Below, in pieces: positions 1-8,862 of a DNA stretch of 8,862 nt. The first letter of the stretch is position 1; each line of letters starts with the position of its first letter. The notes beneath the pieces are model-generated. The model did no database searches. It saw only the letters and a program-made list of their open reading frames with translations, and was not told where the DNA came from. A program made the position numbers and the translations under genes. Source of the DNA: a virus (taxonomy: Duplodnaviria > Heunggongvirae > Uroviricota > Caudoviricetes); IMG/VR virus record IMGVR_UViG_2537562091_000008, positions 1-8,862 of that record, one strand, 5' to 3'.

Positions 1-933
1 ATGGACAACGACAAAATTGATCAACACAGCGACGAAATTGAAGTTGAGAGCGAAGAAAAAGAGCGCGGCAAAAAAATAGAAATAGATGAAGACCGACTCC
101 CCTCCCGGGCGATGGCAATTCATGAGCATATCCGCCAGGATGGTGAAAAAGAGCTGGAACGCGACGCAATGGCGCTACTGTGGTCAGCCATTGCGGCGGG
201 TCTGTCGATGGGCGCTTCGTTACTGGCAAAAGGGATATTTCATGTCGAACTGGAAGGTGTGCCGGGCAGCTTCTTGCTGGAGAATCTCGGTTATACCTTT
301 GGTTTTATTATCGTCATTATGGCCCGCCAGCAATTATTTACCGAAAATACCGTGACTGCGGTACTACCCGTCATGCAAAAACCGACAATGAGCAACGTCG
401 GCTTACTTATACGGTTATGGGGCGTCGTGCTGCTGGGTAATATTCTCGGGACAGGTATTGCGGCGTGGGCATTTGAATATATGCCTATCTTCAATGAAGA
501 AACTCGCGATGCATTTGTCAAAATCGGCATGGATGTGATGAAGAACACCCCCAGCGAGATGTTTGCCAACGCGATCATTTCCGGCTGGCTGATCGCCACT
601 ATGGTTTGGATGTTTCCTGCAGCGGGTGCGGCAAAGATTGTGGTGATTATATTGATGACCTGGCTTATTGCCCTGGGTGACACCACCCATATCGTGGTCG
701 GTTCTGTTGAAATCCTCTATCTGGTGTTTAACGGTACGCTGCACTGGAGCGATTTCATCTGGCCCTTCGCACTACCTACTTTAGCGGGGAACATCTGCGG
801 CGGCACCTTTATCTTCGCGTTAATGAGTCATGCACAGATTCGTAACGACATGAGCAATAAGCGTAAAGCAGAAGCACGCCAAAAAGCAGAACGTGCGGAA
901 AACATTAAGAAAAATTATAAAAACCCGGCATAA
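1..933 (+). CDS. yfdC: Formate/nitrite transporter (FNT) family inner-membrane protein YfdC
   Basis: Complete 310-aa ORF, ATG at 1 to TAA at 931-933. Long hydrophobic segments typical of a polytopic membrane protein and a lysine-rich C-terminal tail. Sequence recognised from memory as E. coli YfdC, the gene immediately upstream of argW. Confidence 0.85.
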   Translation: MDNDKIDQHSDEIEVESEEKERGKKIEIDEDRLPSRAMAIHEHIRQDGEKELERDAMALLWSAIAAGLSMGASLLAKGIFHVELEGVPGSFLLENLGYTFGFIIVIMARQQLFTENTVTAVLPVMQKPTMSNVGLLIRLWGVVLLGNILGTGIAAWAFEYMPIFNEETRDAFVKIGMDVMKNTPSEMFANAIISGWLIATMVWMFPAAGAAKIVVIILMTWLIALGDTTHIVVGSVEILYLVFNGTLHWSDFIWPFALPTLAGNICGGTFIFALMSHAQIRNDMSNKRKAEARQKAERAENIKKNYKNPA

Positions 934-968
934 ATGGCGAGGGTTTAAGCAATCGAGCGGCAGCGTAC

Positions 969-997
969 TTACCCCGCACTCCATTAGCGGGTATACT
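969..997 (+). promoter_or_regulatory. Candidate sigma70 promoter for argW (-35 TTACCC 969-974, 17-nt spacer, -10 TATACT 992-997)
   Basis: Hexamers read directly from the sequence; the -10 element sits about 11 nt upstream of the mature tRNA 5' end at 1009. Motif-level prediction only. Confidence 0.3.
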
Positions 998-1008
998 CAT
1001 GCCGCATT

Positions 1009-1083
1009 GTCCTCTTAGTTAAATGGATATAACGAGCCCCTCCTAAGGGCTAATTGCAGGTTCGATTCCTGCAGGGGACACCA
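1009..1083 (+). tRNA. argW: tRNA-Arg (anticodon CCU), argW
   Basis: 75-nt cloverleaf: acceptor stem GTCCTCT/AGGGGAC, anticodon stem AGCCC/GGGCT with loop CTCCTAA (anticodon CCT), T-arm GGTTCGATTCC, encoded 3' CCA at 1081-1083. Matches the argW sequence as I recall it. Confidence 0.9.
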
Positions 1084-1178
1084 TTTATCAGTTCGCTCCC
1101 ATCCGTACCAGTCCGCAAAATCCCCTGAATATCAAGCCTTCTGTAGATGCACAGTTCGTAATGGTTCGCGTCAGATCG

Positions 1179-1244
1179 TTGACAGCCGCACTCCATGACG
1201 GGTAAAAAGTGGATAAAATAATTTTACCCACCGGATTTTTACCC
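1179..1244 (+). promoter_or_regulatory. Candidate integrase promoter/operator: consensus -35 TTGACA (1179-1184) plus three copies of an 8-bp motif immediately upstream of the int start
   Basis: TTGACA at 1179-1184; possible -10 TAAAAA at 1203-1208 (18-nt spacer, weak). Perfect inverted repeat GGGTAAAA (1200-1207) / TTTTACCC (1222-1229) with a further direct copy TTTTACCC at 1237-1244 abutting the ATG at 1245. Confidence 0.3.
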
Positions 1245-2402
1245 ATGCTCACCGTTAAGCAGATTGAAGCAGCAAAGCCGAAAGAAAAACCATACCGCCT
1301 TCTCGATGGTAATGGCCTGTACCTTTATGTCCCTGTATCAGGGAAAAAGGTATGGCAGCTTCGCTACAAGATTGACGGTAAGGAGAAAATCCTGACCGTC
1401 GGAAAATATCCGCTTATGACTTTGCAGGAGGCAAGGGATAAAGCATGGACTGCGAGGAAAGACATCTCGGTTGGCATCGATCCGGTAAAAGCAAAAAAGG
1501 CTTCGTCTAACAACAATTCCTTTAGCGCCATTTACAAGGAATGGTACGAGCACAAGAAGCAAGTCTGGTCTGTAGGTTATGCTACTGAACTTGCCAGAAT
1601 GTTTGATGACGACATTTTACCTATCATCGGCGGCCTTGAAATTCAAGATATTGAGCCGATGCAACTGCTGGAAGTAATCCGCAGATTTGAAGAGCGCGGG
1701 GCAATGGAGAGAGCCAATAAAGCCCGCAGAAGATGCGGAGAGGTTTTCCGTTACGCTATTGTCACCGGCAGGGCTAAATATAACCCAGCACCTGACCTTG
1801 CTGACGCCATGAAGGGATACCGCAAGAAGAACTTCCCGTTTCTTCCTGCAGACCAGATCACGGCATTTAACAAAGCACTGGCAACATTTTCAGGAAGTAT
1901 CGTATCGCTCATTGCCACCAAGGTTTTACGCTACACAGCCCTAAGAACGAAAGAGCTTCGTTCCATGCTATGGAAGAACGTCGATTTTGAAAACAGGATT
2001 ATCACCATCGACGCCAGTGTGATGAAGGGCCGCAAGATTCATGTAGTGCCGATGTCAGACCAGGTGGTTGAACTTCTCACTACGCTAAGCTCAATCACCA
2101 AACCAGTATCAGAGTTTGTTTTTGCCGGGCGCAACGATAAGAAGAAGCCAATCTGCGAGAACGCGGTACTGCTTGTGATTAAACAAATCGGCTATGAAGG
2201 TCTGGAAAGCGGTCACGGATTCAGGCATGAATTCAGCACGATTATGAACGAGCACGAATGGCCTGCCGACGCCATTGAAGTGCAACTGGCACATGCCAAC
2301 GGCGGATCTGTGCGTGGGATTTACAACCATGCACAGTATCTCGATAAGCGCAGAGAAATGATGCAGTGGTGGGCAGATTGGATTGATGAAAAGGTGGAGT
2401 AA
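1245..2402 (+). CDS. intS: Prophage tyrosine integrase (CPS-53/KpLE1 IntS-like, P4-family)
   Basis: 385-aa product starting MLTVKQIEAAKPKEKPYRLLDGNGLYLYV, recognised as E. coli IntS. Tyrosine-recombinase catalytic region present (HGFRHEF ... RGIYNHAQY). Lies about 160 bp downstream of argW in the same orientation, as at the K-12 argW-intS locus. The six-frame ORF extends to a GTG at 1209 (12 extra residues); the ATG at 1245 is preferred on homology but has no obvious Shine-Dalgarno. Confidence 0.9.
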   Translation: MLTVKQIEAAKPKEKPYRLLDGNGLYLYVPVSGKKVWQLRYKIDGKEKILTVGKYPLMTLQEARDKAWTARKDISVGIDPVKAKKASSNNNSFSAIYKEWYEHKKQVWSVGYATELARMFDDDILPIIGGLEIQDIEPMQLLEVIRRFEERGAMERANKARRRCGEVFRYAIVTGRAKYNPAPDLADAMKGYRKKNFPFLPADQITAFNKALATFSGSIVSLIATKVLRYTALRTKELRSMLWKNVDFENRIITIDASVMKGRKIHVVPMSDQVVELLTTLSSITKPVSEFVFAGRNDKKKPICENAVLLVIKQIGYEGLESGHGFRHEFSTIMNEHEWPADAIEVQLAHANGGSVRGIYNHAQYLDKRREMMQWWADWIDEKVE

Positions 2403-2411
2403 TGCCACCCA

Positions 2412-2729
2412 TCACACCACCACGCCATCCTGCAGCGCGCTGTTGATGAAGTACGTAACACGCCCCATCACCTCCACCTCTTCCGCCGCCTCCACTTCGA
2501 TCGCTTCACCATCATCCGTGATTAATGCCCTTCCCATCACTCTGGCAAATTGCGTTCTGCCGCCGGACAAAATCAGCAGAACCTGATTCTGAACCAGCCT
2601 GGTGCACGGCTGGGACGGAAGTCGCTGTCGTTCTCAAAATCGGTGGAGTTGCATGACAAAGTCATCGGGCATTATCTGAACATAAAACACTATCAGTAAG
2701 TTGGAGTCATTACCGACAATGCGCAGGAA
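2412..2729 (-). pseudogene. Decayed coding remnant convergent with intS (one in-frame TGA, no credible start codon)
   Basis: Minus-strand frame reads [31 protein letters not shown]-[TGA at 2634-2636][73 protein letters not shown], ending at TGA 2412-2414, only 10 bp from the intS stop. Protein-like composition, but interrupted and in a different frame from the ORF fragment upstream of it. Confidence 0.2.
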
Positions 2730-2899
2730 TCACGAAACTCGTTCAGATCAGGCTTATTACCATCGACTTTAACGGCAGTATTTGGCTTAAAATAAAAACC
2801 AGCGCCCCACCCGTTACCGCGCACTTCAATAATGGCAATGCTGTTAATTCATTTAACCTCTCCACCGTCAAATTTGAAAGCACCGCTTTCTGTTTTCAT
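2693..2899 (-). pseudogene. Small ORF interrupted by an in-frame TGA, translationally coupled to the upstream 61-aa ORF
   Basis: ATG at 2899-2897 lies 1 nt after the TAA of the 61-aa ORF and is preceded by GGAG (spacer about 10 nt). Reads MKTESGAFKFDGGEVK-[TGA 2849-2851][51 protein letters not shown], stop TGA at 2693-2695. Missed by the ORF track because of the internal stop. Confidence 0.3.
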
Positions 2900-2900
2900 T

Positions 2901-3086
2901 TTAATCATTCTCCGTAACAGGTTCATTGTGAGCAGCATTTAGTACTCGCTGGAGTGGCTGGTCATTTTCGCGATCTAATTCAGCCTGTAATGTATTCATT
3001 GAAGAATTAAAAGCAGGAACTTCATGACCGCTAAGATTTACGCGAAGCATAAACTGCATGATATTTTGAATAGTTTGCTTATCCAT
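2901..3086 (-). CDS. Hypothetical small acidic protein (61 aa) immediately downstream of the tailspike gene
   Basis: ORF MDKQTIQNIMQFMLRVNLSGHEVPAFNSSMNTLQAELDRENDQPLQRVLNAAHNEPVTEND. Good Shine-Dalgarno (AGGA, 7-nt spacer) before the ATG at 3086-3084. Starts 12 nt after the tailspike stop, consistent with co-transcription. No family recognised. Confidence 0.5.
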   Translation of the reverse strand: MDKQTIQNIMQFMLRVNLSGHEVPAFNSSMNTLQAELDRENDQPLQRVLNAAHNEPVTEND

Positions 3087-3098
3087 TTTATTGTCCTG

Positions 3099-4535
3099 TT
3101 AAGTTAAACCAATTAATCCATGCCCGGTTGAAGCATGTAAGTCCTGAATTAATGCTGCAACCACCTTTGCTAAATCTTCGTGAGTTATTGTTCCAGAGTT
3201 AAATGCTGCTCGGGATACGGTGCCGGTTGGCGATCCCCATCCCGTCCTCCTCTCTGAAATAACTTGATTGCCATTAAGTCGTATTCTTAAGTTGTTGAAG
3301 TTAGCCCAGTTTTCAGCCCTGTTGAAACTCAAATGTGTTGTATTTGCCGGGCCCGTTCCTACCGTAATTCGTTGATTGTCGCCCATCAAAATTGCGCAGT
3401 TGTTTGAAAATCCAGCTTCAGAAAATGAAATTCCACTCCTAAAATAATTTGTTCTAAATCTAATGCCGTTTGCAGCTCTAGATGATAGAGATCCCTCAAG
3501 TCTGATGTATTCGCCATTACCTACCTCGGTTAGTTCCTCTGTTGGAGTGGAAATAGAATTACCTCTAAACAACATTCCTGTCCAGATATAACCATTTGGA
3601 GCTTCACTCCCTCTTCCGATGGTAATCATCTGTGTTACTGGATTGCTTTTATCCTGAGTTACACATACCAACCCTCTTACAGATCCTTGCAGTGTATTCT
3701 CCATCCATCCTTTATCGGGACCTCGATTATTCAGATTAAATTCATGTGCAATAGTGCTAATCGCTCCATTCTGCACTGCATCTCCTAATACGGCACCATA
3801 TGACCACCCCCCCCATGTTTCGGCTTGCGGATTTCTTGATTCTCCACGCATGTGGTGACCAATTGAATGCCCATTCCCGCCCTCATGCTTAGCAACACTT
3901 GTAGTTGTGCATGTATATGCACTTCCTGACACCTTGCGCAAAGAGTTATAAATTACCCCCTGATCCCATCGTTTGATGCCGTCATCCCTAGTTGCAGAAC
4001 TAATTTTTTCCAGCCAAATAATGGGATCTGGAATTGGTGTTTCTGGTATGGAGAATCTCTGTCGTGTAGCATTTTTATATATGATAGTTTCATTGTTATA
4101 AATATTGTCACCAGCTGCATCTGAACCAGTCCATCCTGAGCCAGCATAAAAATTATTAAGTCCATCACCAGACTGTCCAGTCAAAACTACTCTTAACTGA
4201 TCCGGGTCATACTTCAGCACATTCGGAAAATAGAACTGATGCGCACCGTACGCATCATAAACAGCCATAGAATGGCCTTGCACGGTAACGAACTTGGCAA
4301 TCTGTCCGTTATATACCGGATATCCAGCAGCGTTAATGATGATTGGTTGAGAAACAGGAATGTGAGAACCGTCTTCGTTCTCTACATAAACCTGAATCTG
4401 GTTTTCAGGGTTTACCGGGTCAGTGTCAATTTTACCGATATAAATTTTGCCATTGGCTACGGCTTTAAAAGAACGAGCCATAGTGAAGAGTTGCGAAGGC
4501 ATGCTTACCACAACATTTGCGGTGATATCTGACAT
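3099..4535 (-). CDS. Phage tailspike protein: P22 gp9-like head-binding N-terminal domain fused to a divergent receptor-binding domain
   Basis: N-terminal ~115 aa ([97 protein letters not shown]...NVLKYDPDQ) align closely with the P22 tailspike head-binding domain as I recall it; the remaining ~360 aa are unrelated to the P22 endorhamnosidase body. Start set at ATG 4535-4533 (GGAG 7 nt upstream) rather than the upstream ATG at 4583. Visibly AT-rich relative to neighbours. Confidence 0.85.
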
Positions 4536-4656
4536 TTCATTGCTCCAGACGAATGATATGATGCAACCATGATGTGATTGCATACCGAAATGGTACTATT
4601 GAGTATTTATCCAGTAGGTTACGATGCCATTCCACCCAACTGGTGAGGCATCAAGG
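4536..4656. promoter_or_regulatory. Divergent control region between the tailspike and mnt genes, with a candidate operator (inverted repeat ATGCAA-N11-TTGCAT, 4561-4583)
   Basis: 121-bp gap between divergent start codons. Inverted repeat read directly. A plausible plus-strand promoter for mnt (-35 TTGCAT 4578-4583, 17-nt spacer, -10 GAGTAT 4601-4606) overlaps the repeat. Contains a TAGGT motif (4614-4618) that resembles part of the P22 mnt operator half-site as I recall it. Confidence 0.3.
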
Positions 4657-4923
4657 ATGTACAGCAAATACGACGAGGCGCAGTTTCACTTGAGACTTCC
4701 GCATGAACTCCACGCGAAAATTAAGCAGCGTGCGAAGATGAATAACAGGTCGCTGAACTCAGAGATAATTGCAGCGATTGAAGAATCATTGGCTAAACAA
4801 AGCTCTGCATCTGTTTACATTGACGATGCAGAGCGTATGGCAGAACAACAATCTGAGATGGTTAAGAAAATTGTCTTTGATACGCTTAAGACCATGTATA
4901 GCAATAATAAAAAGGAAACATAG
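4657..4923 (+). CDS. mnt: Mnt-like ribbon-helix-helix transcriptional repressor (P22 immI-type)
   Basis: 88-aa product MYSKYDEAQFHLRLPHELHAKIKQRAKMNNRSLNSEIIAAIEESLAKQSSASVYIDDAERMAEQQSEMVKKIVFDTLKTMYSNNKKET, closely parallel to P22 Mnt as recalled (FNFRMPMEVREKLKFRAEANGRSMNSELLQIVQDALSK ... NDAERLADEQSELVKKMVFDTLK). Alternative upstream ATG at 4624 would add 11 residues. Confidence 0.8.
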   Translation: MYSKYDEAQFHLRLPHELHAKIKQRAKMNNRSLNSEIIAAIEESLAKQSSASVYIDDAERMAEQQSEMVKKIVFDTLKTMYSNNKKET

Positions 4924-4993
4924 AAATCTAGTTTCCGGCTAAAATGGCATTGCCTTCATGATATCCTGTGAAAAACTAAGGAGAGTTAACCAT

Positions 4994-5479
4994 ATGAAAA
5001 AATCACTGTTAATTATCCCGCTTCTGCTGGTTGGATGCGCAAAAGTAAGTGACTATCAAGCAAGTTGCGAACAACGCTATCAAAAGCTTAGCGATATGGC
5101 TAATTGCCTTGATGCCAGTGTGAAGAACGACTCACGCATGGCATCAGCACCAACACCTAAGCTGTATGTCCTTGCTGCAAAGATGCTCGGGCAAGGTGTC
5201 GATGAAGGCAAGATAAGTGACGCACAGGCAAGACTTGAGCTTCAGAATCTTTATGTTCAATTACAAAGCCAAGAACAAGCCCAACAAATAGCACAAAGCC
5301 AAGCATTCCAGCAGGCTTTATTGAATTATCAGGCTGTAAACACAATGCAAGCGATCGAGCAAAAAGCGCGCCAGCCTGTTATAACTCAACCTTACCCAAC
5401 ACGCGTTGACACTTACACAAACTGCAATTCAGGGTTTGGAAATACAGTCACATGCAACAGTAGCAGTAACATCAGATAA
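4994..5479 (+). CDS. Prophage-encoded lipoprotein (candidate superinfection-exclusion / lysogenic-conversion protein)
   Basis: ATG at 4994 preceded by AAGGAG (4978-4983). N-terminus MKKSLLIIPLLLVGC is a type II signal peptide with lipobox LVGC; the residue after Cys is Ala. Mature part has a Cys-rich N-terminal segment, a Gln-rich predicted helical segment (QNLYVQLQSQEQAQQIAQSQAFQQALLNYQAVNTMQAIEQKARQ) and a C-terminal Cys pair. Same strand as and 70 bp downstream of mnt. Confidence 0.65.
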   Translation: MKKSLLIIPLLLVGCAKVSDYQASCEQRYQKLSDMANCLDASVKNDSRMASAPTPKLYVLAAKMLGQGVDEGKISDAQARLELQNLYVQLQSQEQAQQIAQSQAFQQALLNYQAVNTMQAIEQKARQPVITQPYPTRVDTYTNCNSGFGNTVTCNSSSNIR

Positions 5480-5569
5480 CAATCAGCAAAGGTATCGCCT
5501 ATGCAGAGGAATACGATAAACCTCGCGTTCTACATATTTGGTTTTTGCACGTTCCTGGTGTTTGAAAGG

Positions 5570-7567
5570 CTATTCTGACAACGAATCAGACTTAGCACCC
5601 TGCGTCAGTGCATTAATCGCTTTTTGCGCTTGCTGCATGGCTTTCTCAAACGCTGTCGATCCGCGTGGTGTGTTTGCCATTCGGAGCATTGCATTTCTGA
5701 ATGGTTCGCTCTCATAGGCGCGAGTAAGAAGTCCGTAGCTTACCGCTGCGCCAGTTGTCGCCGGGTTCATTGCTGTCCCATACCCGATAATGAACGGGAT
5801 GGTTTGCTGCCCTGTTGGTGTTGTTACTGCCGCTTTTGCAGCCTGCTGCGTGGATTGCAGGTAGTTTTTCAATCCTTTCAGATAAGCAGCGTCCTGCCCC
5901 TTAAATGTGATGCCAGTCTGGTTTTGCAGGATGTTAAGCTGTCGAAGGAACTGATCAGGGGAACCCCCTGATTTCTCCATCGCCTTTCCAATGATGCCAT
6001 TGCGCATTTGCGCCCTGCCAACACGACCAACTGAGTTATACAGCGTCTTAATTTCCGATTTGTTCTTGCTGAATAGCATGTTGTTGACAACTTCCGGCGT
6101 CAGATCGCCTTTCATGAGAACATTCTTCAGCCTGGTATTCTTTAGTTTCGCCGCTTCGTCAGCGTAGACGGCATTGGCCTGCTGATATTTACGGAGAGTA
6201 TCGTTGCCAAGATTCTGACCAATGGCACCATTGATATCGTCTGTCATCGCCTTGTAAACGCGCTGAATGGCAGCATCGGAACGGTTTGGTAACACTGGTC
6301 GTTCCCCCTTCACGTCCATTCTGAACTGGCTGCGCAGATCGCTTAATTGCTTCAAATCCAGATTTACCGGACCATCAGGACTAGCATTGCGAACAAGCTC
6401 ATCACGATAGGACTGAAGTTTTGAAATAGTCTCGTTATCAGCAACCTTACCAAGCTTCTGCAGGTTAGATATTTCTGTATCAATCTGCTGAATTGCTCGC
6501 GCAGGCTGAATGTTTACTCCAGCCATAGCATTCTGAACCTGCTCCAGTCGATTACCGGCGGCACGACGAATTCCTGATGTTTTCGCTTTAAGGCTGTCAA
6601 TAACAACCGCTGGATCATACTCGCCGAATTTATCAGCAAATCTCTGCACCAACTGACTTCTCGCTTCCTGTTGCGTTGCTCTCATTCCGCTTGTGCCAGC
6701 CAGGGGAATATTTTCTGCTGTAGTCTGCGCCATTTTCCCGACGCGGGAAGTAGGCTGTAACAGGTCTGTGGTGTGCAGAGGCACTCCTTCACGCTCTGCA
6801 AATCTGATAGCTTGCTGCGCTTCTGGTGCAATAGCACCACGAACGCCACGATAAGCAGCGCCTAATCCACGTCCGGCAGCGTTAATAGCGCCGCCAGCCA
6901 GAACGCCAACGCCTAAATCGGTGGCGAGTGCTTCCGCATCATCTTTCGCACTATTTGCAGCAAGTGATCCAACTGCGTTTTCTGCTAGAAGGCGAGTTGC
7001 CCCCTGAGCAATTCGACCAGCAAGTGTTGGTGCCTGTGTTGCCGCTCTCTCAACGCCAGCAGGAGTGAGGTAAGGCAATGCTTCAGCAAATACCCTTCCC
7101 TCTGTCGTTTGTGGAGTCAGCGCGCCTTGCTGAAGGCCAAAGTCCTGCTCTAATCCCTGCGTTGTTACTCGTGGTGCTGGTTGATATGTACCATCGCCAA
7201 TGCCGAGTTTACCGCCAGCCCAAGCCGCCGCGCTTGTTACAGCATCAGCAACTGATGCAGGTATATTTGCCACGTTCACGCCAGCCTGCACCAGTCCGCG
7301 ACCAGTCTCTTTTACTGCTTCGCCAAGATCAGACATAAATCCACTTTGCTGTGGTTGTTGCTGTGCTACTGGTTGCTGTGTCTCCACTGGCTGTACAGAT
7401 GGCAATGGATAGGCAGCATAGAAAGCTTGCTTAGCCTGCTCTGCATTTTCTCCGGCTTGCGGGGCCACGACTTCATTGAAGTATTGCTCCTGAGCTTGCG
7501 CTTTTTGTTCTGGTGCTAACGCCTGATACTGTGGAGAGGCGATAACATCTTTCCATGCTTTAGCCAT
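5570..7567 (-). CDS. Phage ejection (internal virion / DNA-transfer) protein, P22 gp16-like by position
   Basis: 665-aa ORF, the last gene of the late operon before the immunity/tailspike region, which is where gene 16 sits in P22-like genomes. Start ATG overlaps the upstream gene's stop (TAATG at 7565-7569). Long Ala/Gly/Gln-rich low-complexity segments. Assignment is by synteny and composition, not by recalled sequence identity. Confidence 0.55.
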   Translation of the reverse strand: MAKAWKDVIASPQYQALAPEQKAQAQEQYFNEVVAPQAGENAEQAKQAFYAAYPLPSVQPVETQQPVAQQQPQQSGFMSDLGEAVKETGRGLVQAGVNVANIPASVADAVTSAAAWAGGKLGIGDGTYQPAPRVTTQGLEQDFGLQQGALTPQTTEGRVFAEALPYLTPAGVERAATQAPTLAGRIAQGATRLLAENAVGSLAANSAKDDAEALATDLGVGVLAGGAINAAGRGLGAAYRGVRGAIAPEAQQAIRFAEREGVPLHTTDLLQPTSRVGKMAQTTAENIPLAGTSGMRATQQEARSQLVQRFADKFGEYDPAVVIDSLKAKTSGIRRAAGNRLEQVQNAMAGVNIQPARAIQQIDTEISNLQKLGKVADNETISKLQSYRDELVRNASPDGPVNLDLKQLSDLRSQFRMDVKGERPVLPNRSDAAIQRVYKAMTDDINGAIGQNLGNDTLRKYQQANAVYADEAAKLKNTRLKNVLMKGDLTPEVVNNMLFSKNKSEIKTLYNSVGRVGRAQMRNGIIGKAMEKSGGSPDQFLRQLNILQNQTGITFKGQDAAYLKGLKNYLQSTQQAAKAAVTTPTGQQTIPFIIGYGTAMNPATTGAAVSYGLLTRAYESEPFRNAMLRMANTPRGSTAFEKAMQQAQKAINALTQGAKSDSLSE

Positions 7568-8862
7568 TAATCACCCCATAGTGAAGAAAAATTACTGCCA
7601 GTAGTAGGTTGTTGCGCTGGCGTATTCTGTACTGGCTCCTGATAATCAAACTGTTTTTTAACAGTGCTCAACTTGCTTTCAAGCTGATTTCTAATCTTTC
7701 CGATAGAGTCACGAAAAGCCTTTTCACTCATTTTGGGGCTTAGGGCACCAACCGCATCGGATAATTTTTTACCCTCAGCATCTGAAAGAGCACCCATACC
7801 CTTCAGGGACTGCACCATAGGAAGGAATGTTTGAGCTTTAAAGGTGTCGAGCCTTGCTTCAAAGTTAGCCGCATCAGAGCCAGGAACTGTCGGAAACGCT
7901 GAGCGAATTCCTACTGCTTTTGAAAGGCCGGGGCTTTGCTCTATCTCGTTGAGAGAATCAAGCGCGGTGCTGAACGTATCAACTGCACCCTGAGCTGCGG
8001 CCTGCCTGTCAGCGCGGGCTATGTCAGCCTTTTGCCGAACATCTGCCTGTTTCTGTTTTAGCTCTTCAAGCTTTAACTGATTGCTTTCTCTGGCTATCTG
8101 TCTGTCCAGAGCCTTTTCTTGTAACTCTGCTCTTTGTATTTCTCGGGAAAGAGCAGCATTCTGTGCGCTGATGTTCTGTCCACGTATCTGGATGTCCTGA
8201 CCTCGAGCTGTTAGTGCTTCACCTGCCTGATTGCTGCGGATTGTCTCTGCCAGCCTGCCTCTGTCAATTTCACGACCAGCCATCTTGTCCTGAACATTGA
8301 AGTAATCAATCGGACCAAGCGCAGCCATCCCAAGGTGATCAACAAACTCACCAAATCCTGAAGGATTCTGCTGATACATCTGAGCAACGTTGTTAGGGTC
8401 AACAGCGACGCGCGCCAGTTCCTTGGCGTTATTTTGCAGCCACGATTGCATTGCTTCTGGAGATGAGGCCGCAAGGCGTGCGCCAGCCGCTAAGGTGCCG
8501 ATAGAATTACGCTGGTCTTCATCAATGAATCCCATGCCTTTACGAACGGATTCAATCTGGTCTGGATATTGAGTAGCCAACTGACGCAAAGCACCGCGAT
8601 CACCAGACGCATAAGCATTAGCGTACGCCTGCTGGAATTCTTTCTTCCGCTGAGCCTGCTTCTCCTGCTGAAACACCCCCGCAATACCTGAAAGGCCTTG
8701 CAAAGCAGTCAGCCCAACATTGTTAGCGCCTGAACGCTCAATATCATTGTTCTGCCTGATAAGCTGAAGCGTGTTGCCGATGTCATTTACGCTCGGAGCG
8801 TTTGAGTTGACACCACCGATACCAGCCAACAATCCGCCATTTGTTCCTTGCCAAGTAGCCAT
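7567..8862 (-). CDS. Phage ejection protein, P22 gp20-like by position (start coincides with window edge; may be 5'-truncated)
   Basis: 431-aa ORF beginning MATWQGTNGG exactly at the window boundary, immediately upstream of and coupled to the gp16-like gene. Contains a charged predicted coiled-coil segment (AQNAALSREIQRAELQEKALDRQIARESNQLKLEELKQKQADVRQKADIARADRQ). Confidence 0.5.
   Translation of the reverse strand: MATWQGTNGGLLAGIGGVNSNAPSVNDIGNTLQLIRQNNDIERSGANNVGLTALQGLSGIAGVFQQEKQAQRKKEFQQAYANAYASGDRGALRQLATQYPDQIESVRKGMGFIDEDQRNSIGTLAAGARLAASSPEAMQSWLQNNAKELARVAVDPNNVAQMYQQNPSGFGEFVDHLGMAALGPIDYFNVQDKMAGREIDRGRLAETIRSNQAGEALTARGQDIQIRGQNISAQNAALSREIQRAELQEKALDRQIARESNQLKLEELKQKQADVRQKADIARADRQAAAQGAVDTFSTALDSLNEIEQSPGLSKAVGIRSAFPTVPGSDAANFEARLDTFKAQTFLPMVQSLKGMGALSDAEGKKLSDAVGALSPKMSEKAFRDSIGKIRNQLESKLSTVKKQFDYQEPVQNTPAQQPTTGSNFSSLWGD

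Follow-up and report, generated by a model that had tools for sequence, protein, structure and literature searches.

The DNA analysed here, referred to below as the window, comprises 8,862 nucleotides (positions 1–8,862 of the IMG/VR virus record IMGVR_UViG_2537562091_000008) and carries the right arm of a P22-like prophage of E. coli that is integrated at argW. The interval of concern, at 2403–3098, separates the prophage integrase gene intS from the P22-type tailspike gene. Read from the tailspike side it contains an intact open reading frame (ORF) for a 61-residue protein, ORF1 (2901..3086, − strand); a doubly inactivated second frame, ORF2 (2693..2899, − strand), which belongs to a small-protein type termed B here and whose native part is codons 1–61 at 2715–2899; the right-end remnant of an IS1 element (2612..2714, + strand); an 8 bp microhomology, GCACGGCT (2604..2611), at a deletion junction; and the 3′ remnant of a UmuD′-like gene (2412..2611, − strand). 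The interval is the ordinary scar of an IS1-associated deletion in which approximately 2 kb were removed. A sugar-modifying cargo gene once occupied this slot and was then deleted, and the surviving ORF1 appears to be the distal part of a portable receptor-binding cassette.

An earlier reading of the window, made from its letters without database searches (the sequence-only reading), had described an intact 61-residue ORF, a coupled ORF broken by TGA and a third protein-like frame ending near the intS stop, all of which are present. It had also held that the slot lacks a gtr or oac-like gene; among the ORFs of 2403–3098 and in a Pfam search of them neither gtr nor oac was found, and no GtrA, GT2/GtrB, GtrC or Acyl_transf_3 domain of an O-antigen conversion system. 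Its picture of a decayed remnant with one intact gene is borne out by the doubly broken ORF2, the IS1 scar and the open ORF1. The IS1 remnant itself was overlooked, and the third frame, taken as part of the same module, proved to be unrelated to it, being the 3′ 65 codons of the UmuD′-like gene.

The IS1 remnant is 103 bp long and corresponds to IS1 positions 666–768, that is, the 3′ end of insB and the right terminal inverted repeat ending in GTTGGAGTCATTACC. By BLAST, window positions 2576–2714 match positions 630–768 of the annotated IS1 of phage P1 at 92% identity, and this match overlaps the UmuD′-like remnant and stops at the terminal inverted repeat; the identity to other IS1 copies is up to 96–98%. 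When the slot was compared with phage and E. coli genome collections by BLAST, thousands of IS1 matches were returned over 2576–2714, and the annotations of two related loci (L001 and L002 among the loci gathered for comparison) call the remnant 'IS1 family transposase, incomplete'. The fragment was assigned to IS1 by nucleotide identity ending at the terminal inverted repeat. A complete 768 bp IS1 with both inverted repeats, insA and insB was not found in the slot: only positions ∼658–768 are left, and the left end and insA are gone.

The junction was placed by a base-by-base overlay of the window, IS1 and the undeleted relatives L003, L008, L009 and L014. The window is homologous to the phage gene as far as 2611 and matches IS1 perfectly starting at 2604; the eight bases of overlap occur in IS1 (positions 658–665) and in the UmuD′-like gene alike. 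A 33 bp patch of ∼70% identity between the 3′ part of insB and the UmuD′-like gene (window 2580–2611 against IS1 ∼634–665) ends in the same octamer, and is probably a chance similarity that guided illegitimate recombination. The UmuD′-like remnant was identified by comparing its translation with the intact gene at L003 6010–6324 and by BLAST mapping; it retains codons 40–104 and the stop (2412–2414, 9 bp from the intS stop at 2402), the start and the first 39 codons being gone. On the other side, the 3′ end of ORF2 is cut by IS1 at 2715, and its last six codons and stop are read from the IS1 end. In total, 1,959 bp of the intact locus L009 (6373–8331) are replaced by the IS1 fragment in the window.

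In close relatives the ancestral order is tailspike, ORF1 (61 residues), B (88–94 residues), C (80 residues), a glycosyltransferase family 2 (GT2)-type gene on the opposite strand, a gene for a 79–82-residue protein, the 104/105-residue UmuD′-like gene and int. The E. coli assemblies L009–L014 encode a tailspike of 484 residues, followed by ORF1 (61), B (94), the opposite-strand gene (393), the 79- and 105-residue proteins and int. The closest relatives, L039–L042, have a B gene of 88 codons, a C-type gene of 80 and an opposite-strand gene of 406; over the tailspike gene and on to base 2715 they match the window at 97.4% identity, and beyond that base they continue into the rest of B, C and the glycosyltransferase gene. 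The sequence-only proposal that small ORFs stand here instead of O-antigen genes did not survive this comparison, since undeleted relatives (L039–L042, L009–L014, L003 and L037) have the gene for the 393–406-residue glycosyltransferase, read from the opposite strand, precisely here. The protein matches Pfam Glyco_tranf_2_4 (35.9 bits against a cut-off of 27.5) and is named 'glycosyltransferase family 2 protein' in RefSeq; its domain and position suggest a role in O-antigen modification. It is called shorter, at 319–322 residues, in L010, L011 and L014, and in L011 an ISL3-family transposase (8019–9239) lies between it and the gene for the 79-residue protein. The slot is a recurrent target of insertion sequence (IS) activity and decay. 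In the metagenomic locus L038 (366–3497) a 595-residue homologue of the receptor-binding domain (RBD) of the tailspike is followed by a 63-residue ORF and an Acyl_transf_3 (Oac-like) gene; judged from this arrangement, the spike type can apparently pair with an acetyltransferase in place of the GT2-type glycosyltransferase.

The temperate relatives thus have a moron-like layout made up of the opposite-strand glycosyltransferase gene and the pair of genes for the 79-residue and UmuD′-like proteins, and all of these are lost or cut in the window. As in the slots of P22 (gtrABC), Sf6 (oac) and Kapi1 (hyp24), the interval lies between tailspike and int/att and, in undeleted relatives, holds a sugar-modifying enzyme gene in moron-like opposite orientation. 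Unlike P22 GtrABC or the Oac acyltransferase, the enzyme of these relatives is a predicted soluble GT2-type glycosyltransferase, and the window has lost it.

The intact 104/105-residue protein matches phrog_3469, 'UmuD-like' (E value 3.6e-40), and normally adjoins int together with its 79–82-residue partner. It resembles UmuD′ and P1 HumD in that intact relatives begin MGFPSPAGDYVEQR, matching UmuD residues 25–42, the N-terminal arm of UmuD′, and in its PHROGs label 'UmuD-like'. It differs from them in that only ∼18 residues match, and the window keeps only the nonmatching C-terminal 65 codons. Membership of the UmuD/HumD (Peptidase_S24) family was not supported: no Pfam match was obtained, the HumD model NF051876 scored 25.5 bits against a cut-off of 120, and the PDB matches span residues 2–19 only, a part that the window remnant lacks. 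Only the first ∼18 residues (GFPSPAGDYVEQR) resemble the arm, and the rest is without an S24 peptidase signature. The pair of a 79–82-residue gene (phrog_3893, unknown function) followed by the 104/105-residue 'UmuD-like' gene is found at the end nearest int in many temperate phages of enterobacteria (L003 6010–6572 and L009 7975–8531, for example), and homologues of the UmuD′-like protein were found in 56 phage records, including mEp390, phiES15 and many Klebsiella prophages.

The scar is rare. Both junctions are identical in three of 5,426 complete E. coli genomes (EF5-18-41, CFSAN061770 and EP91A) and in the IMG/VR contig L019; L020 has the same IS1 truncation of B, its locus ending before the UmuD′-like junction. 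The flanks vary among the carriers, and the UmuD′-like remnant of CFSAN061770 is mosaic. Since the junctions are identical in all carriers and the flanks differ, the compared sequences point to one ancestral event, after which the scar would have persisted and recombined. In the order of events that we propose, IS1 would have inserted into gene B after codon 61, and a single illegitimate recombination between a site inside IS1 and the UmuD′-like gene, at GCACGGCT, would then have removed the left 657–665 bp of IS1 (the break falling within the 8 bp microhomology), the 3′ end of B, all of C, the glycosyltransferase gene, the gene for the 79-residue protein and the first 39 codons of the UmuD′-like gene. 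A later G-to-T change would have produced the TGA at codon 17 of the already truncated B. The scar resembles other prophage IS remnants and deletions associated with IS1 in that the end of an IS1, its right inverted repeat intact, lies directly against a truncated gene, and in that a short microhomology marks the second junction. An adjacent deletion of the classic kind mediated by IS1 was rejected, since such events leave the IS whole and here IS1 itself is truncated to its last 103–111 bp, which argues for an illegitimate or microhomology-mediated event with one end inside IS1.

ORF1 (RefSeq WP_016231946.1 in relatives, 'hypothetical protein') is the intact gene of the slot. Its ATG lies 12 bp past the tailspike stop, with AGGA 8 nt upstream. 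The N-terminal ∼40 residues of the protein are conserved (M..Q.IQNIMQFM.RV.L.G.EVPAFN..M.AL) and the tail is variable and often acidic; the alignments place the window protein in the family by the conserved positions F12, R15, L18, G20, E22, F26 and L33. Twenty-five close homologues were found in a large protein collection. A profile search of 1.84 billion cluster representatives retrieved 256 clusters (50% identity) with an E value of at most 0.001, and nearly all of the listed matches are 40–115 residues long. Over the first 40 codons the ratio of nonsynonymous to synonymous substitution rates (dN/dS) is 0.10–0.34 against seven relatives, with dS up to ∼1.8. Because of these 256 clusters and dN/dS values, ORF1 can be taken as a real gene with its protein under purifying selection, and the earlier expectation that the small ORFs are more than chance frames is upheld.

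The neighbourhood of ORF1 was analysed by classifying the ORFs of every gathered locus by BLASTP against reference proteins, which gave 30 ORF1-containing loci, window included. In 26 of the 30, the protein encoded ahead of ORF1 is homologous, over its C-terminal ∼365 residues, to the RBD of the window tailspike, and at most ∼40 bp separate the end of its gene from the ORF1 start; the exceptions are L016, L017, L031 and an Aeromonas locus, in which only the last 63 residues are common. The N-terminal anchors of the RBD homologues differ (Head_binding, Tail_spike_N and T7-tail), and so do the phage backbones on which ORF1 is found. These are P22-like phages, with the Head_binding N-terminus; a lambdoid prophage of strain E3 (L008), where it adjoins the TipJ tail protein; the T7-like contig L018, where it lies between gene 17 (Phage_T7_tail N-terminus) and the small terminase gene; a Kagunavirus siphovirus (L006); the Phapecoctavirus myoviruses nieznany and tuntematon and a 154 kb contig (L004 and L029); and the Aeromonas siphovirus AsC4_1 (L005). 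The tail protein of AsC4_1 shares only its last 63 residues with the window tailspike (40% identity, E value 5e-11), and its gene is followed by consecutive genes that resemble ORF1, B and C. This protein (ORF20, L005 2395–3990) is annotated 'lipolytic protein, G-D-S-L family' and ends in GHGLYGLT, against GHGLIGLT in the E. coli tailspike. The C-terminal module of the tailspike appears to be an independently mobile domain.

A search from the RBD side gave a similar arrangement: four further RBD homologues, namely P0200, P0201, P0204 and the protein upstream of P0187, a distant ORF1 relative, are each followed within 0–12 bp by an ORF of 54–79 codons. Behind P0204 (L037) ORF1, B and C follow, all intact. 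The ORFs behind P0200 and P0201 encode 54 and 63 residues, start at 0–2 bp and resemble ORF1 in their pattern of two helix-like segments around an 'EV' motif; no similarity of these two ORFs to ORF1 was detected by BLAST. The protein upstream of P0187 ends in ALIDDLIAHGLIGT.

The genes are tightly spaced. The tailspike and ORF1 are separated by 12 bp, ORF1 and ORF2 by 1 nt (the ORF2 ATG being at 2897–2899, with GGAG upstream), and ORF1 and the C-type gene, where adjacent, overlap by 17 nt; a simple scan found no terminator between tailspike, ORF1, B and C. The comparison of loci suggests that the unit moving between phages is the RBD plus ORF1, in some cases with B and/or C, the final ∼60 spike residues being the constant partner of ORF1. 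Because they lie on the late-gene strand, are tightly coupled and are present in phages without lysogeny functions in the examined sequence, ORF1, and B and C where present, would be the distal part of a portable receptor-binding cassette and not lysogenic-conversion cargo. The exchange of tailspike modules between podo-, sipho- and myoviruses in P22, 9NA and Det7 is comparable in that one RBD occurs on different anchors. We know of no description, for that case, of small downstream genes in the exchanged unit, of which there are one to three here.

The tailspike of the window (478 residues from MSDITANVV) is of P22 type by its Head_binding domain (PF09008, E value 2e-66, residues 17–129), and its PDB matches cover the head-binding domain only (the Sf6 and P22 tailspike N-termini). 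The ∼365-residue RBD is of an uncharacterised type, and an AlphaFold2 model of it from a 15-sequence alignment reached a predicted local distance difference test (pLDDT) score of 46, too low for the model to be of use. RefSeq treats the tailspike as a pseudogene fragment ('head-binding domain-containing protein, missing C-terminus') at L001 7779–8133, L002 7677–8132, L003 9451–9819 and L007 6198–6566. The ORF is fully open in all four, with 478 residues in L001–L003 and 498 in L007, and the pseudogene call looks like an annotation artefact arising from the unfamiliar RBD. In the window the ORF runs on to 4583; this upstream extension of 16 codons (4536–4583) is probably untranslated, since relatives start at MTDITANVV.

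ORF2 reads MKTESGAFKFDGGEVK up to an in-frame TGA at codon 17 (2849–2851) and continues INS.... The base behind the TGA is A2851 on the + strand, where EF5-18-41, 99.1% identical to the window across the slot, has C, giving GGA (Gly); CFSAN061770 has the TGA too, and only some scar carriers have it. The sequence-only reading had proposed looking for unbroken versions of this ORF in relatives, and full-length B homologues of 74–94 residues were indeed found; compared with them, the last 26–32 codons are lost at the IS1 junction. The B family has the conserved core GWSAGFYLKP...GNKPDLNEFRD...FPLPAIDALY.AAC. The 80-residue C-type protein (LYIRVELPRV.GKY...QCY.HAK.ELPYATIDC) occurs in some relatives alongside or instead of B, and aligns with B in register at ∼14% identity; from this alignment the two may be distant paralogues. 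A fold search with the predicted structure of B gave no match.

The B and C content differs by locus. Loci of the L009 type have B and only a 3′ remnant of C, those of the L003 type have C only, those of the L039 type have kept C and have a B with TAG at codon 14 (2770–2772 in L039), the window lineage has a truncated B that in part carries the TGA at codon 17, and the Kagunavirus lacks both. Two independent G-to-T nonsense changes are thus seen three codons apart in B, GGA to TGA at codon 17 (window and CFSAN061770) and GAG to TAG at codon 14 (L039–L042); together with the reciprocal loss of B or C across lineages, they suggest that B is dispensable or redundant with C. The database protein P0029 was considered as an intact version of ORF2 and rejected, since Q at its residue 14 is TAG in the DNA (L039–L042); the gene caller evidently used a recoded-stop model, and this homologue is actually interrupted.

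Tail-fibre assembly factors (Tfa of lambda, P2 and Mu, T4 gp38 and gp57A) are small genes just 3′ of a receptor-binding gene that move with the C-terminus of the fibre. ORF1 resembles them in lying immediately downstream of the RBD gene and in being co-inherited with its C-terminal part. It differs from Tfa and gp38 in being much smaller, and ORF1, B and C show no sequence similarity to Tfa, gp38 or gp57A: no Caudo_TAP, other Pfam, NCBIfam or PDB match was found. P22-type tailspikes studied so far fold, to our knowledge, without a separate chaperone. In the mechanism that we propose, ORF1, B and C would be transcribed together with the tailspike gene and coupled to it in translation. ORF1 would be a small, probably helical accessory protein whose target is the C-terminal module conserved in tailspikes of this type; it would serve as a chaperone of assembly (trimerisation) or as a tip-bound factor, much as the tail-fibre assembly proteins encoded just after fibre genes do. 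Such a role is suggested because a small gene directly after a receptor-binding gene, co-inherited with its C-terminus, is what is seen for assembly factors; it is the best-supported mechanism considered here, and we propose it tentatively. Slightly more guarded still is the broader proposal that ORF1 and the optional, paralogue-like B and C could constitute an unrecognised class of very small accessory proteins, obligatorily paired with one C-terminal module (...ALI.DL..HGLIG.T) and needed to fold, trimerise or cap it.

The earlier idea of a small cargo module corresponds to a different explanation, in which ORF1 and ORF2 would be a lysogenic-conversion (moron) module expressed by the prophage in place of gtr or oac and altering a host trait such as the cell surface or phage resistance. 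The int–tailspike interval is the classic moron site of P22-like phages, the related argW P22-like phage Kapi1 has a candidate seroconversion gene there (bioRxiv 10.1101/2021.04.09.439263), relatives have a glycosyltransferase or Acyl_transf_3 gene (L038) as a neighbour, and ORF1, B and C are without known function. Against this, ORF1 and ORF2 are on the late-gene strand, co-oriented and coupled with the tailspike at 12 bp and 1 nt from the preceding stops, and genes of their types follow homologous RBDs in Phapecoctavirus isolates, the T7-like contig and the Kagunavirus, where no lysogeny module is visible nearby. ORF1, B and C co-vary with the RBD type and not with integration site or cargo; their sequences have no evident signal peptide or transmembrane segment, and PADLOC gave no match. 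We regard a cargo module as improbable. The sugar-modifying genes next to ORF1, B and C could also be taken to favour protection of the phage's own receptor interaction, the small proteins acting late in infection to block or modify the pathway of the receptor glycan and thereby keep progeny from being trapped on cell debris. The llp gene of T5 and the cor gene of phi80 and N15 are encoded next to receptor-binding genes and move with them, and in this respect ORF1, B and C are alike. Llp and Cor, however, are exported lipoproteins or membrane proteins, and no signal peptide, lipobox or transmembrane segment is present in the sequences of ORF1, B and C; moreover, the association follows the last ∼60 residues of the receptor-binding protein (RBP) even where the central domain differs, which fits a protein–protein partner of the RBP better. 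This explanation, too, is unlikely.

Conservation of ORF1 might instead be mainly that of a recombination boundary, its first ∼120 nt serving as a linker for the exchange of tailspike cassettes and the protein having little or no function. Window and L003/L008 share 95–96% identity over the first ∼115–130 nt of ORF1 and are unrelated immediately beyond this stretch, and the RBD cassette has clearly moved between backbones. Selection on the protein is nevertheless indicated, since it remains conserved in comparisons in which DNA divergence has reached saturation (dS ∼0.9–1.8 with dN/dS 0.10–0.26 against L009, L004, L007 and L018), and homologues at 37–56% identity occur in Aeromonas and T7-like phages, within the 256 clusters overall. 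We accordingly give a mere boundary little credence.

An accessory role for ORF1 in the receptor-binding cassette has points against it as well. The tie between ORF1 and the tailspike is one of gene linkage. Searches of Pfam, NCBIfam, PADLOC and the PDB gave no match for ORF1, B or C, and PHROG gave only weak matches to families of unknown function; sub-threshold matches of these proteins and the 79-residue protein (NET2A_C, AcrIC5 with an E value of 0.44 and REase_II with 0.0045) were rejected as chance. A literature search on the small ORFs found nothing and turned up Kapi1 alone as a related argW P22-like phage. Some phages can dispense with B and C, ORF1 being the only one of the three in the Kagunavirus and in L030, and B has acquired nonsense mutations independently in two lineages. 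The distant ORF1 relatives P0076 (L032) and P0146 (L016) sit among small genes and not after an RBP; the linkage is therefore limited to the close family, and the claim that every ORF1 relative follows an RBP is ruled out. For the scar, IS1 insertion followed by deletion is proposed as the simplest reading of the junctions. Gene anatomy, deletion and gene linkage were read directly, and we infer the biochemical role of ORF1. With these points taken into account, we consider the account as a whole, a deletion scar beside an ORF1 that forms the distal part of a receptor-binding cassette and has an accessory role, to be probable.

The remainder of the window is consistent in layout with related E. 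coli genomes, in which the gene arrangement at argW is identical; no single-stretch match to the entire window was found among complete RefSeq E. coli genomes, the best covering ∼80% in two pieces. yfdC (1–933) lies at the left end, followed by the tRNA-Arg (CCT) gene argW (1009..1083, + strand), the attachment site of the prophage, which was identified by ARAGORN and by Rfam (tRNA, 63 bits); the Rfam scan of the window gave no other match. intS (1245..2402, + strand) opens at GTG 1209, and the start at 1245 corresponds to the 385 residues annotated in RefSeq relatives ('prophage integrase IntS' in the annotated loci L001–L003). Beyond the tailspike gene (3099..4535, − strand) lie an Arc-like gene (4624–4923, + strand), a lipoprotein-like gene (4958–5479, + strand) and, in the minus-strand right arm, two ejection-protein genes (5570–7567 and 7567–8862). 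The lipoprotein-like ORF encodes 173 residues, or 161 from an internal Met, has the lipoprotein-like start MKKSLLIIPLLLVGC and matches phrog_6067, a family of unknown function (E value 2e-110); because of its position between the Arc-like and ejection-protein genes it may be a moron of the immI region. A repeat scan of the window found a weak 26 nt pair and a 22 nt inverted pair and nothing else, and both are probably due to chance.

The scar itself is of low interest, being a further case of IS-driven erosion of a prophage accessory region, and it serves as a warning that a cluster of small ORFs is not to be read as cargo without comparing relatives. The undeleted relatives are a source of a candidate O-antigen-modifying enzyme, the soluble GT2-type glycosyltransferase of argW P22-like prophages of E. 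coli. ORF1, B and C form an uncharacterised small-protein family and are a modest new lead. The 50–60-residue gene after the spike is unnamed and easily dropped by annotation pipelines. Where tailspike or tail-fibre domains of this class are swapped between phages, be it to engineer host range or to produce depolymerases, the small gene behind them may have to be moved as well. If the proposed pairing is true, P22-like, lambdoid, T7-like, Kagunavirus, Phapecoctavirus and Aeromonas phages would exchange host range in the form of a cassette of two to four genes and not of the spike gene alone.

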